DNA of 64,000 nt from a virus (Duplodnaviria; Heunggongvirae; Uroviricota; Caudoviricetes), in the IMG/VR virus record IMGVR_UViG_2778261164_000001, positions 20,803-84,802 of that record. One strand, written 5' to 3'. Position numbers and translations under genes: made by a program. Position 1 is the first letter of the stretch. Each line of letters opens with the position of its first letter. This document shows, piece by piece, positions 23,687 through 34,918 of the stretch. Below the pieces are notes generated by a model. It was not told the origin of the DNA and searched no databases. It saw only the letters and a program-made list of their open reading frames with translations.

Positions 23687-24045
23687 GAGTTGCAGATCAC
23701 ATCAAACACCTTGAAAGAATTATCGAAAACGGTGAACTCTTAAGAGATCAGATGAGACGCACGGCAGAAGCCAGGGAGGCGATAATCCGCAGTCAGGCTG
23801 GTAAATTAAAGCAATTGTCAGAGATTAACACGCTATACAAGAACAGACGTAACCGGGCGGTGATGCGGCTTCAGAAAGCACGTAATGAAATTAAATTGGT
23901 GGAGGCAAAACTGAAAAAACAGATCCAGCGTTACGATCAGCAAGATGCTTTTTATGCCGCCATCAAGGCGGCTGCTAATGAAATAGGCATCTGGAAGTTG
24001 CTGGTGGAGAAAGCAAAGACGAAGTTAAATGCCAACGAAAGCTGA
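23683..24045 (+). CDS. hypothetical coiled-coil protein (last gene of the rightward operon)
   Basis: 120-aa ORF with ATGA overlap; Lys/Glu/Arg-rich heptads. Confidence 0.5.
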   Translation: MRVADHIKHLERIIENGELLRDQMRRTAEAREAIIRSQAGKLKQLSEINTLYKNRRNRAVMRLQKARNEIKLVEAKLKKQIQRYDQQDAFYAAIKAAANEIGIWKLLVEKAKTKLNANES

Positions 24046-24120
24046 ACTACAGGTGCCCACCAGCACATACAGAAAATGATTGTTTCCACATCAAGGAGAT
24101 TTTAATGTTTCACTGAAACA

Positions 24121-24258
24121 TTAAGTAAGCCAGTGCATAATTCCATTTTTTACTGACCTTAAAAGCAAAATCAAAACGATGATGAGGATAATAGCCAGAA
24201 TCTGGCTAATAATAGGCGCATCTAAAAATGCACTCAGGAACTGAAAAAAAGCGTTCAT
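24121..24258 (-). CDS. 45-aa hydrophobic peptide (MNAFFQFLSAFLDAPIISQILAIILIIVLILLLRSVKNGIMHWLT)
   Basis: ATG-to-TAA frame on the minus strand inside an otherwise non-coding AT-rich stretch; single predicted TM helix; no clear RBS. Confidence 0.3.
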   Translation of the reverse strand: MNAFFQFLSAFLDAPIISQILAIILIIVLILLLRSVKNGIMHWLT

Positions 24259-25119
24259 TCAGGTGGTTCCTTGTCAAATGTAAAGGTGCACTTGCTCACG
24301 TTGACGTAGAAACCCAACCCCTATATAGTTGGATTCGGTGAATGAAAGTCGTTAACGTGAGCTTACGGCACATGTTTTCGGAAAAACATCAGGGAACGGC
24401 TAATTCCTTGATGCGGGTGGGGTCTGTAATGCAGACCCTATCTATTAACGTCATGATTGCATCTCAAATTTTCTCCTTATCTTCAATTAATCTACATTCA
24501 TTTCATCTGTTAGCCACCACAATATGTAGAAAATGGCCCTCTTGCAAGTGCATAACTTTGTGGATAACTCAGGAAGGAAAAAGTGGCTTTCGCGCACCTT
24601 CGGTCAGACAAGGTGTCCGGGAAAGTCAACGCAAAGAAAAAATTGTTAAAAATAACGTTTGTTGGAATTGTATATTTTTATCCCCTTCAATGGTTAGCAT
24701 TCTATTAACATCTTTTTTTAGAGACAGAAAAACATATCGTAACAACATATATACAGTATTAAGAGGCGAGTATTATCCTGCGGTGGGAATTCTGGGCGCT
24801 GTTAGATTCGACTTTCTCAGCAGGATTACATCGTCAACTTGCGACGTTGCCGTATGACTTTCGTGTAATAGGTGACAATGATGCGGCTAGTGAGTTACTT
24901 GTGAAGTTTTTCGGAAAAGGTTTTGTGGCCTCGGATCTTGATGAGCTACAGCAACATGAAGTGTCTAATTTGATTTTTAGCCATAGCCAATAAGCCTCCC
25001 TCCTCCATCAAGGCCACAATTTGTGACCTTAAACAATTTGTTTTCTGCTTTTTCTTATTTGAGAAAATAACGTTGTTGACAGCTAATAGGCTCGTTGTTG
25101 TTATACATGCCTGTATAGA

Positions 25120-25476
25120 TTATGACCGTAAATTATTAGCGGATTTTAAGCCATATTCACCGTTGTAGAAATTACTCATGTTCCATTCATTAGGAAGTTC
25201 TTTTCTGTCCAATGTATAGTGGCGCACGATATAACGATCTTCATCTTCTTCGATGGACAGGCGGACATAGCCAATGTGAATCACCGATACGGGCGGTGTT
25301 CGTATTGCATAGATGTCGCGGAGATATACCGGCAGCTCGACAAATGCATCAGGTGCATCTGTGATGCTCGTTTTTTCACAGTATTCATATAACGCATCGT
25401 TGATATCGTTAAGAGATTCATGATCGTATATTTCCAGGTAATTACCGCGATCGCGATGGTACTCGATTTTAGCCAT
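25120..25476 (-). CDS. hypothetical protein (second gene of a leftward pair)
   Basis: 118-aa ORF; its ATG abuts the upstream stop. Confidence 0.5.
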   Translation of the reverse strand: MAKIEYHRDRGNYLEIYDHESLNDINDALYEYCEKTSITDAPDAFVELPVYLRDIYAIRTPPVSVIHIGYVRLSIEEDEDRYIVRHYTLDRKELPNEWNMSNFYNGEYGLKSANNLRS

Positions 25477-26061
25477 TCAAAATCCCCTGTTATCGTTTTG
25501 CATTTCTCTAATCCGGTTCAGAACTACTTCGTGCTGGACTTGGATAGCGGCTTTTTCGTTTTCAAGCCGGGCAATAGACATCTCTAATTCTTTGCTGTAC
25601 CAGGCGAGCTGGGCCAGGTTCATCCGGTTGTGGTCGAGAGTTGGAGACACTTCGACGCGATCCCTTTCTTCCTGCTTTAATGAGAAGAGATTCATCTCAT
25701 CCCTTGAGGAAAATTCAGCAACAATTTCTTGTTGATGATCCGGTCGCTGCGGCATCCTCGCCAGTATAAATGGCGGTTCTTTTGAAAACATGAATGACGG
25801 TTTAGACCGTGTTTTGACCCATCTAGCTTGCTGTCTTTCGGCAAGTTCACAGGCTTCATCATAGTTATCTACAAAACCAAGCACGGATGGACGGTCCCAC
25901 GCGCCACCATTCAGACAATAAACAAGAATTTTCCCGTCAGGTTCTGTAACTCCATAGGGATGGTCCCACCAGGCGTCCAGCTGGGCTTTGGAGCGTTTCT
26001 CGTTAGGAGTGCAGTCAAAATTTTTGGGCAATGCAGGATCGAGAGGAATGCGGGCAGGCAT
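25477..26061 (-). CDS. hypothetical protein, divergent from humD next to a LexA box
   Basis: 194-aa ORF starting about 135 nt from the SOS box; no motif recognised. Confidence 0.5.
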   Translation of the reverse strand: MPARIPLDPALPKNFDCTPNEKRSKAQLDAWWDHPYGVTEPDGKILVYCLNGGAWDRPSVLGFVDNYDEACELAERQQARWVKTRSKPSFMFSKEPPFILARMPQRPDHQQEIVAEFSSRDEMNLFSLKQEERDRVEVSPTLDHNRMNLAQLAWYSKELEMSIARLENEKAAIQVQHEVVLNRIREMQNDNRGF

Positions 26062-26195
26062 GGCTAATTCCTTATTAATTGATTAGTAACGAGGTTACGC
26101 TGATCCAGCGGTGATGAATAGTAGCAAAGCGCACAAAGTCATCAGAGGGGTTAAGATCCATAACGCGTTTGCACCAAAGGTGTCTCTTTAATGTA

Positions 26196-26215
26196 TACTG
26201 TATAAATGAACAGTA
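26196..26215. promoter_or_regulatory. LexA (SOS) box
   Basis: TACTGTATAAATGAACAGTA fits CTGT-N8-ACAG; 20 nt upstream of the humD start codon. Confidence 0.8.
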
Positions 26216-26234
26216 TTATTGAGGTGAAAACGCT

Positions 26235-26624
26235 ATGGGCTTCCCTTCTCCTGCGGCGGATTATGTTGAAAGCCGAATTTCTCTTGATCAGCAACTAATC
26301 AGGCATCCATCAGCAACCTACTTCATGCGGGCAGCTGATAGCCATCACCGTGAGGGAATATTGCAGGGTGCTTTGCTGGTGGTTGATTCTTCGCTTACTC
26401 CAGTTGATGGTTCGCTGCTTGTGTGCGCTATGGAGGGTGAATATCGCATAAAGAGATACCGAAAGTATCCGCGCCAGCACCTGGAGGATTTAAGCACCGG
26501 GAAGAAAGAGGCGTTACCAGTAGATGACGATGGATGCACGGGCAGTAATGCTGTGTTTGGTGTGATCACTCATGTCATTAATGATGCCCGAAGTGGGGAA
26601 TTTGATGATTGTCCGGTGATTTAA
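26235..26624 (+). CDS. humD: UmuD-like translesion synthesis accessory protein
   Basis: LexA/UmuD peptidase S24-like fold without the N-terminal cleavage arm; GAGGTG RBS; SOS box upstream. Confidence 0.85.
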   Translation: MGFPSPAADYVESRISLDQQLIRHPSATYFMRAADSHHREGILQGALLVVDSSLTPVDGSLLVCAMEGEYRIKRYRKYPRQHLEDLSTGKKEALPVDDDGCTGSNAVFGVITHVINDARSGEFDDCPVI

Positions 26625-26659
26625 GCTGCAAAGTGCTGGTGCTTTATGCCTGTGACGTT

Positions 26660-26690
26660 TATAATTGTGTACACATAACGAGTACACGAG
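26660..26690 (+). promoter_or_regulatory. phd-doc promoter/operator region
   Basis: -10 TATAAT (26660-26665) immediately followed by the perfect palindrome GTGTACAC and a second GTACAC half-site. Confidence 0.55.
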
Positions 26691-26696
26691 GTGTTT

Positions 26697-26918
26697 ATGC
26701 AATCCATTAACTTCCGTACCGCGCGCGGCAACCTTTCTGAAGTGCTCAACAATGTTGAAGCCGGGGAAGAGGTTGAAATCACCCGCAGAGGCCGTGAGCC
26801 AGCAGTAATTGTCAGCAAGGCTACTTTCGAAGCCTACAAAAAAGCGGCGCTGGATGCTGAATTTGCATCCCTGTTTGACACCCTGGACTCCACCAACAAG
26901 GAACTGGTTAACCGATAA
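26697..26918 (+). CDS. phd: antitoxin Phd (prevents host death)
   Basis: 73-aa product [39 protein letters not shown]... matches P1 Phd as recalled. Confidence 0.95.
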
Positions 26919-27298
26919 TGAGGCATATATCACCGGAAGAACTTATTGCGCTTCATGATGCGAATATAAGCCGCTACGGCGGCCTGCCTGGCATGTCAGA
27001 TCCGGGCAGGGCAGAGGCCATTATCGGGAGAGTTCAGGCCAGAGTTGCCTACGAAGAGATCACCGACCTTTTCGAAGTCTCCGCCACCTACCTAGTGGCT
27101 ACAGCGAGAGGGCATATATTCAATGATGCCAATAAGCGTACCGCGCTAAACAGCGCGCTGCTATTTCTACGCCGTAACGGGGTGCAGGTATTTGATTCAC
27201 CTGAACTGGCAGACCTTACTGTAGGCGCTGCGACTGGCGAGATATCTGTATCTTCTGTCGCCGACACGTTACGTAGATTGTATGGTTCTGCGGAGTAG
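26918..27298 (+). CDS. doc: toxin Doc (death on curing; Fic-fold kinase)
   Basis: 126 aa; ATGA overlap with phd; Fic-like motif region [11 protein letters not shown]. Confidence 0.95.
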
Positions 27299-27482
27299 AT
27301 TAATGGCACGTAAATACAACAAGTTGTCCCGTGAAGCGTTAAAGATGCTTCTTGATGGCGTGAGTCGCCGCGAGGTAAAGCAATACCTGGTTGGTAAGCA
27401 AGTTGGTGTCAGGACCGCTATTGCTGTGTTATGCCGTCAGGAAATGGTTGTGCTTAAACAGAGAATGCCGGGCAGCAGATAA
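27282..27482 (+). CDS. small basic protein (post-doc gene)
   Basis: 66-aa ORF (possibly starting at ATG 27303) directly downstream of doc. Confidence 0.4.
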
Positions 27483-33434: not shown

Positions 33435-33468
33435 ATAACTTCGTATAGCATACATTATACGAAGTTAT
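33435..33468. other. loxP site-specific recombination site
   Basis: Exact 34-bp loxP: ATAACTTCGTATA-GCATACAT-TATACGAAGTTAT. Confidence 0.97.
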
Positions 33469-33487
33469 CTTAAGGGTTATTGAACAT

Positions 33488-33560
33488 GATCAATTTACCT
33501 GTAAATCCATACAGTTCAATACCTTATCAGGTCAAATAGTGATCACTTGATCATTTGATC
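33488..33560. promoter_or_regulatory. GATC (Dam site) cluster in the cre upstream region
   Basis: GATC at 33488, 33541, 33549 and 33557 (TGATCACTTGATCATTTGATCA) between loxP and cre. Confidence 0.5.
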
Positions 33561-33886: not shown

Positions 33887-34918
33887 ATGTCCAATTTACT
33901 GACCGTACACCAAAATTTGCCTGCATTACCGGTCGATGCAACGAGTGATGAGGTTCGCAAGAACCTGATGGACATGTTCAGGGATCGCCAGGCGTTTTCT
34001 GAGCATACCTGGAAAATGCTTCTGTCCGTTTGCCGGTCGTGGGCGGCATGGTGCAAGTTGAATAACCGGAAATGGTTTCCCGCAGAACCTGAAGATGTTC
34101 GCGATTATCTTCTATATCTTCAGGCGCGCGGTCTGGCAGTAAAAACTATCCAGCAACATTTGGGCCAGCTAAACATGCTTCATCGTCGGTCCGGGCTGCC
34201 ACGACCAAGTGACAGCAACGCTGTTTCACTAGTCATGCGGCGGATCCGAAAAGAAAACGTTGATGCCGGTGAACGTGCAAAACAGGCACTAGCGTTCGAA
34301 CGCACTGATTTCGACCAGGTTCGTTCACTCATGGAAAATAGCGATCGCTGCCAGGATATACGTAATCTGGCATTTCTGGGGATTGCTTATAACACCCTGT
34401 TACGTATAGCCGAAATTGCCAGGATCAGGGTTAAAGATATCTCACGTACTGACGGTGGGAGAATGTTAATCCATATTGGCAGAACGAAAACGCTGGTTAG
34501 CACCGCAGGTGTAGAGAAGGCACTTAGCCTGGGGGTAACTAAACTGGTCGAGCGATGGATTTCTGTCTCTGGTGTGGCTGATGATCCGAATAACTACTTG
34601 TTTTGCCGGGTCAGAAAAAATGGTGTTGCCTCGCCATCATCCACCAGCCAGCTATCAACTCGCGCCCTGGAAGGGATTTTTGAAGCAACTCACCGATTGA
34701 TTTACGGGGCTAAGGATGACTCTGGTCAGAGGTACCTGGCCTGGTCTGGACACAGTGCCCGTGTCGGAGCCGCGCGAGATATGGCCCGCGCCGGAGTTTC
34801 AATACCGGAGATCATGCAAGCTGGTGGCTGGACCAACGTAAATATTGTCATGAACTATATCCGTAATCTGGATAGTGAAACGGGGGCAATGGTGCGCCTG
34901 CTGGAAGATGGTGATTAG
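33887..34918 (+). CDS. cre: Cre tyrosine recombinase
   Basis: 343-aa product MSNLLTVHQNLPALPVDATSDEVRKNLMDMFRDRQAFSEHTWKMLLSVCRSWAAWCKLNNRKWFPAEPEDVRDYLLYLQARGLAVKTIQQHLGQLNMLHRRSGLPRPSDSNAVSLVMRRIRKENVDAGERAKQALAFERTDFDQVRSLMENSDRCQDIRNLAFLGIAYNTLLRIAEIARIRVKDISRTDGGRMLIHIGRTKTLVSTAGVEKALSLGVTKLVERWISVSGVADDPNNYLFCRVRKNGVAAPSATSQLSTRALEGIFEATHRLIYGAKDDSGQRYLAWSGHSARVGAARDMARAGVSIPEIMQAGGWTNVNIVMNYIRNLDSETGAMVRLLEDGD-type sequence recognised as Cre, with the cognate loxP upstream. Confidence 0.98.
   Translation: MSNLLTVHQNLPALPVDATSDEVRKNLMDMFRDRQAFSEHTWKMLLSVCRSWAAWCKLNNRKWFPAEPEDVRDYLLYLQARGLAVKTIQQHLGQLNMLHRRSGLPRPSDSNAVSLVMRRIRKENVDAGERAKQALAFERTDFDQVRSLMENSDRCQDIRNLAFLGIAYNTLLRIAEIARIRVKDISRTDGGRMLIHIGRTKTLVSTAGVEKALSLGVTKLVERWISVSGVADDPNNYLFCRVRKNGVASPSSTSQLSTRALEGIFEATHRLIYGAKDDSGQRYLAWSGHSARVGAARDMARAGVSIPEIMQAGGWTNVNIVMNYIRNLDSETGAMVRLLEDGD

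Follow-up and report, generated by a model that had tools for sequence, protein, structure and literature searches.

In umuDC-type operons, such as umuDC of E. coli and the plasmid-borne mucAB and samAB, a near-consensus CTG-N10-CAG operator lies directly upstream of a gene of the S24 UmuD family. A related arrangement has been annotated in phages P1 and P7, where a LexA site is recorded as a protein_bind feature before humD (positions 87545-87564 in P1 and 94404-94423 in P7) and lxr lies on its other side. The P1 record describes this element as 'LexA binding site in the regulatory region of lxr and humD' and gives lxr, which encodes 190 aa, the product 'LexA regulated function'. The pmgT...hot-lxr-humD interval was one of eight highly variable regions in a survey of P1-like phage-plasmids (PMC9603915), and lxr, hot and humD of P1 were found by CRISPRi to be non-essential for lytic growth (PMC10695390).

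The window (the whole stretch of DNA that was analysed, 64 kb) is, judged from its sequence, a P1/P7-like phage-plasmid, and the locus described here is its known humD-lxr divergent region in the P7-type configuration. The window was collinear with many E. coli and Salmonella P1-like plasmids at 98-100% identity, and pairwise blastn showed it to be collinear with P7 except for the IS903 of P7. Positions 24000-27400 were 98% identical to phages P7 and SJ46 and to several isolates labelled 'P1', and two E. coli plasmids matched them at 100%; 1434 plasmids in PLSDB share at least part of this interval. Three tRNA genes, which are expected for a P1-like genome, were detected on the plus strand of the window with Rfam (872-944, 950-1022, and 3065-3137). 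The features of the locus are:

24666-25493, no strand: replacement segment of 828 bp, delimited by blastn against P1, which holds upf93.6 and the last lxr codons
24793-24993, plus strand: remnant of a Toprim-like gene (residues 118-183 of 183 aa), convergent on upf93.6
25120-25476, minus strand: upf93.6, 118 aa, acidic alpha+beta protein, start codon abutting the lxr stop
25477-26061, minus strand: lxr (upf94.2 of P7), 194 aa, acidic alpha/beta N-terminal domain (about residues 1-130) and a C-terminal long helix (149-192)
26118-26126, minus strand: predicted promoter candidate, extended -10 TGcTACTAT, the best leftward one (PWM 7.4), about 70 bp leftward of the LexA box
26169-26199, plus strand: putative humD promoter, sigma-70-like TTGCAC-19-TATACT, overlapping the left half of the box (PWM 7.4, close to a background of 2.5 per kb and so suggestive only)
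26196-26215, no strand: predicted LexA (SOS) operator TACTGTATAAATGAACAGTA, a near-consensus 20-bp palindrome
26235-26624, plus strand: humD, 129 aa, UmuD'-like protein of the S24 peptidase family (Pfam Peptidase_S24, E 5.7e-9), annotated in P1 and P7

Alignment with the humD upstream regions of P1 and P7, which the original prediction had proposed as a check, recovered lxr, the LexA site and humD in the same orientation in both. In P7 (AF503408, 93327-94832) the genes, their order and the position of the box are those of the window, and the DNA is about 97-99% identical across the region. P7 differs in carrying IS903 just beyond upf93.6, at the place that corresponds to window position ~24857-24865, where the window has no IS903. 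P1 (AF234172, 86567-87973) has homologs of lxr, the LexA box and humD in syntenic positions, but its hot, which encodes a homolog of theta, is convergent on lxr, whereas the window has a segment with upf93.6 and the Toprim remnant instead. Homology to P1 in blastn stopped at 24665 and restarted at 25494, and the 828 bp between them stand in place of the 306-bp hot cassette of P1. Because the right breakpoint falls in the last lxr codons, the Lxr of the window has a slightly different C-terminus that is four residues longer than that of P1. With this exchange of segments, the variable region, which is a known one, has its P7-type layout.

The original statement that P1 carries hot and lxr in this neighbourhood agrees with the annotated P1 record, and the statement that no theta-like gene is in sight also held: a tblastn search with P1 Hot across the whole 64-kb window found no theta or Hot homolog (best E 0.98), and blastn of hot against the whole window gave only matches of 13-16 nt (E 0.69). 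Hot is missing here because the segment with upf93.6 sits where P1 has the hot cassette, and its absence is the normal P7-type state. Seven other loci (L023, L026, L029, L033, L046, L067, and L084; about 3586-4211) have lxr, then a 115-120-aa variant of Upf93.6 with a different C-terminus, then a convergent hot. Since this arrangement exists, upf93.6 and hot are not mutually exclusive. To the left of upf93.6, the 48-aa open reading frame at 24793-24993 is the C-terminal third of a 183-aa Toprim-like protein with the motif VIGDNDAAG (DNDAAG), which is intact in other P1-like elements (tblastn, 88% identity to 3643-4194 of locus L056). This remnant marks the stretch left of upf93.6 as a recombination scar. 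The IS903 of P7 is inserted in the same Toprim remnant.

The leftward unit of two coupled genes, predicted at 194 aa and 118 aa, was confirmed. At the junction, which reads AACAGGGGATTTTGAATGGCT on the minus strand, the TGA stop of lxr is followed directly by the ATG of upf93.6, and a Shine-Dalgarno-like AGGGGA motif lies inside the 3' end of lxr, six bases upstream of that ATG; the arrangement fits translational coupling. By comparison with relatives of 58-68% identity and unsaturated dS, which gave dN/dS of 0.04-0.12 for the two genes (about 0.1 for lxr), lxr and upf93.6 are evidently real genes under purifying selection. The 194-aa product is 94% identical to Upf94.2 of P7 and 92% identical to Lxr of P1 over its full length, and matches PHROG 6164 over residues 1-194 of 194 (E 2.8e-132). 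The 118-aa product is 99% identical to Upf93.6 of P7, matches PHROG 5797 (E 3.8e-77), and is encoded directly downstream of upf94.2, as in P7. Divergence of lxr from humD across the LexA box is the synteny of the annotated P1 and P7 records. One of the two readings originally offered, that these are P1 lxr-region genes of unknown function, is thus the one that GenBank annotation bears out for the pair, with Lxr/Upf94.2 as the first gene and the Upf93.6 of P7 as the second. Both leftward genes, the LexA site and the missing hot are all present in the reference annotations of P7 and P1, and the locus is in this respect known and ordinary.

In some P1-like lineages (L056, 3001-3582) lxr is split into reading frames of 111 aa and 71 aa that fall into separate PHROGs (17145 and 10721), and in others (L086-L091, 3001-3084) it is truncated to 28 codons. 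That humD and the box are intact where lxr is split or truncated is evidence that lxr can be dispensed with and that its decay is independent of humD.

The box itself lies exactly where it had been placed, between humD and the leftward unit, and was rightly called strong. With three mismatches to the 20-mer consensus, TACTGTATAAATGAACAGTA is the sole site in the 64 kb with three or fewer mismatches to the LexA consensus TACTGTATATATATACAGTA, and none was expected from 100 dinucleotide-preserving shuffles. The CTG-N10-CAG pattern occurred 38 times in the window, against 13.75 +/- 3.6 expected from dinucleotide shuffles, and only two of the occurrences had AT-rich cores. This excess is probably an effect of codon usage (CTG for Leu, CAG for Gln), not a sign of extra LexA sites. 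As the loose pattern is so frequent, only the full 20-mer is diagnostic. Elsewhere in the window loxP (ATAACTTCGTATAGCATACATTATACGAAGTTAT) and cre are present (region of 33436-33469, 33497-33516, and 33887-34918). The CTG-N10-CAG site between loxP and cre, ACCTGTAAATCCATACAGTT, is the counterpart of the second LexA site of P1, which lies over promoter P2coi and is linked to lytic induction; through this match the element has two LexA sites.

The start of humD is 20 bp beyond the box. Compared with the umuDC operator of E. coli, the humD box differs at about 3 of 20 positions. Differences from the umuDC-type operons are that the humD product is already truncated to a UmuD'-like form and has no polymerase partner gene, and that its operator lies in a divergent intergenic region. 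Two rightward promoter candidates lie on the box, the better at 26169-26199 and the other at 26191-26219, both with sigma-70 PWM scores near background. A search of the intergenic region with Rfam found no structured RNA.

Whether the box also controls the leftward genes was addressed with 70 IMG/VR loci that encode Lxr relatives, in each of which the presence of hot, humD, and upf93.6 was recorded, together with that of any LexA box in the 400 bp upstream of lxr. The box was present in all 57 loci with a divergent humD, at 125-137 bp from the lxr start (136 bp in most), and occurred in seven sequence variants that all kept CTG-N10-CAG. It was absent from all 12 evaluable loci without humD. 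Three of the more distant P1-like elements (L072, L073, and L075) retain lxr and upf93.6 and have neither humD nor box, and an independent contig (L019) agrees with the absence of the box where humD is absent. Conversely, box and humD are kept in six loci with lxr cut to 28 codons, and in phages RCS47 and D6 the order is hot, box, humD, with no lxr and with homology to the window starting 9 bp left of the box. The genes for short Lxr homologs on Salmonella, Klebsiella, and Pseudomonas elements had no LexA box in their upstream regions. Nearly all of the humD loci are close relatives (at least 90% identity); the 57 cannot be counted as independent events, and the co-segregation of box and humD is partly phylogenetic linkage. 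The comparative evidence that the operator belongs to humD is moderately strong. Since the box tracks humD and not the lxr pair, SOS control of lxr-upf93.6, which has been deduced from position alone, looks doubtful.

The main alternative is a bidirectional SOS operator, in which one LexA dimer at 26196-26215 would repress both humD and a divergent leftward promoter, making lxr-upf93.6 a damage-induced operon with a leader of about 135 nt. The box does lie in the sole intergenic region between the two units, almost every locus has it at 135-137 bp from lxr, and the authors of the P1 record annotated the site as regulatory for both lxr and humD and named lxr accordingly. Weak leftward hexamer pairs also overlap the box, with PWM scores of 4.1-4.7 (the lowest being TTCACC-18-TATACA, 4.1), but candidates with such scores occur at a background of about 16 per kb, and the best leftward candidate is about 70 bp away; promoter predictions on both strands are at background level. 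A shared operator does not sit well with a box that is missing wherever humD is missing, even where lxr and upf93.6 persist, and that is retained where lxr is deleted or truncated. Literature searches found no experimental report of SOS control, nor any study of the function of lxr, upf94.2, or upf93.6. A bidirectional operator is therefore a serious candidate, though somewhat unlikely. The damage-induced part of the other reading originally offered, that of a damage-induced module specific to this lineage, is unsupported, as the box co-segregates with humD and no convincing leftward promoter overlaps it.

The explanation that best fits the locus as a whole, and that is considered likely, is a P7-type humD-lxr region whose operator is primarily that of humD and whose leftward pair probably has its own promoter. 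Bound LexA would occlude the humD promoter, and cleavage of LexA mediated by RecA* would then release HumD for translesion synthesis. The lxr-upf93.6 pair would probably be read from a promoter nearer to lxr and translated as a coupled unit, under weak LexA control or none.

As to the products of the pair, the earlier observation that neither shows a recognised motif was upheld by profile and structure searches, which gave no known family and no convincing fold. Lxr and Upf93.6 had no match in Pfam, NCBIfam or PADLOC beyond sub-threshold noise (for example DUF7491 and DUF7588), searches of the PDB by sequence, whether started from single sequences or from a profile, brought no significant match, and the only profile matches, PHROGs 6164 and 5797, are families of unknown function. 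A profile search of 1.84 billion representative sequences placed 480 clusters (50% identity) in the Lxr family at E<=1e-3, and the family was found on plasmids, ICEs, and phage-plasmids. It has two forms, the P1-like form of about 190 aa with a C-terminal extension of about 60 residues and a stand-alone form of about 130 aa, which share a conserved N-terminal domain (IPLDPxLPxNFDxTPNxxRSKxQLDAWWDHPYG...VRCLNGGAWDR...QRPD). The most conserved motifs, LDxWWDxP, CLNGGAWDR, and QRPD, are not basic. The AF2 model of Lxr (pLDDT 89.9) consists of two beta3-alpha units followed by the long helix 149-192, and this coiled-coil tail is limited to the P1-like members. The sequences examined, 41 of the Lxr family and 9 of the Upf93.6 family, were acidic without exception (pI 4.5-5.6). 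The Lxr N-terminal domain thus belongs to a widespread and uniformly acidic family, newly described here, that is carried by mobile elements, is not represented in Pfam and resembles no known fold convincingly.

Many distant members carry an extra helical N-terminal segment of about 60 residues, and one of them has a PaaA2 'stability determinant' motif. In many distant Lxr-domain proteins from Burkholderiales and Rhizobiales (P0122-P0174 of alignment A5) a conserved helical segment at residues ~1-55 reads TATLxAxxKRxAKxxAR...HxxALExxARxAGYxSWHxL and weakly matches the N-terminus of Glyoxalase_8 in Pfam. Two details of Lxr were considered and rejected: a Cys-His-Asp catalytic triad (C49, H34, D33/D56), as distant relatives have other residues in place of H34 and C49, and a beta-clamp-binding motif in QLDAWW, which is inside a folded helix of the AF2 model.

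The neighbours of Lxr relatives vary with the element. The gene lies between a 67-aa open reading frame and a resolvase gene on a PromA-like plasmid, near Fic/VbhA, RepA, SNase, and ArdC; near umuDC-like genes and Tus on a large Salmonella plasmid; beside RecA, gp32, Pol III alpha, and a HEPN-Toprim gene on a Klebsiella phage-plasmid; adjoining integrases in Burkholderiales genomic islands; and adjoining traA/traCDG, SNase, a methyltransferase, and ArdC in a Rhodopseudomonas conjugative element. On PromA-like plasmids of Pseudomonas and Xanthomonas (L004-L007, 5787-7040) a 66-67-aa open reading frame, the Lxr-like gene and the resolvase gene form an apparent three-gene operon with overlapping stop and start codons, which recalls the accessory genes of multimer-resolution (parCBA-type) operons.

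The Upf93.6 family is narrow, with 18 clusters, and its model is of moderate quality (pLDDT 66), with no informative fold match. On a Salmonella plasmid a Upf93.6 homolog is encoded beside a gene for a 320-aa protein that bears no relation to Lxr and contains no Pfam domain. Protein p0100 of RCS47 (116 aa) was considered as a Upf93.6 homolog and rejected as not homologous.

These properties suggest, tentatively and at less than the likelihood given to the shared operator, that Lxr is not a DNA-binding regulator but an acidic, protein-binding accessory factor that acts on a component of host DNA metabolism or defence. In P1-like elements it may be oligomerised by the added coiled-coil helix; it would act during establishment or stress, and the acidic Upf93.6 could be its lineage-specific partner. 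The proposal is drawn from the charge of the proteins, their genomic surroundings and the absence of matches, and the partnership is putative, given that upf93.6 occurs without lxr in L016 and Lxr occurs mostly without Upf93.6. Small acidic proteins of establishment and anti-defence (the ArdA, KlcA/ArdB, PsiB, and Ocr class) are comparable in size, in charge and in their occurrence on plasmids, ICEs, and phage-plasmids, and Lxr relatives often lie beside ArdC, SNase, methyltransferase, and transfer genes, but no similarity in sequence or fold was detected between that class and Lxr or Upf93.6.

The product name used by NCBI, 'DNA-binding protein', implies instead that Lxr is a DNA-binding regulator, with AP2/integrase-like units of three strands plus a helix and a coiled-coil dimer, which perhaps controls its neighbours. 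No Pfam, NCBIfam or PDB sequence match supports this for any of the 41 members, even at E<=10; structural scores were below the usual significance, and HicB-N and coiled coils scored equally. In profile, fold and basic surface Lxr did not correspond to an AP2/ERF-type or other known DNA-binding domain. The uniform acidity of the family argues against the label, as every member has a pI of 4.5-5.6 and the conserved motifs are not basic, and a role as DNA-binding regulator is distinctly unlikely.

A highly unlikely reading of the two genes is that they form a toxin-antitoxin, abortive-infection or other defence cassette in the variable region beside phd-doc. A small, tightly coupled pair in a recombination hot spot of P1-like plasmids would suit such a cassette, as would the PaaA2 motif of one distant Lxr relative and the HEPN-Toprim gene beside the Klebsiella homolog, but neither PADLOC nor the toxin and antitoxin families gave a match, Lxr is mostly found alone (in the P1 type and in the ~130-aa homologs) and Upf93.6 sometimes without Lxr. 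In addition, several lineages that keep its neighbour carry lxr as a pseudogene or in truncated form, which is unexpected for an antitoxin.

A novel damage-induced module of this lineage, the reading to which the absence of upf93.6 from the P1 reference genome and the narrow Upf93.6 family might point, has almost no probability left, because both genes are conserved and already annotated (in the 2003 GenBank record of P7) and the pair also occurs in SJ46, in about 131 PLSDB plasmids and in 35 of the 70 IMG/VR lxr loci (megablast of PLSDB at >=80% query coverage found 131 plasmids with upf93.6, 184 with lxr, and 367 with hot), which makes it a common annotated variant and not a lineage novelty.

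Returning to the acidic accessory factor, a more specific and still more tentative version of that proposal is that the Lxr N-terminal domain is a family of host-factor inhibitors, either anti-defence proteins or modulators of the replisome or of repair, spread across Proteobacteria, to which P1-like phages may have added a coiled-coil helix and the P7 lineage Upf93.6; the term 'LexA-regulated function' would then be a misnomer that arose from proximity to the humD operator. Nothing but the position of lxr underlies that label, and the comparison of related loci speaks against it. Screens for anti-defence or establishment functions could reasonably include the Lxr domain.
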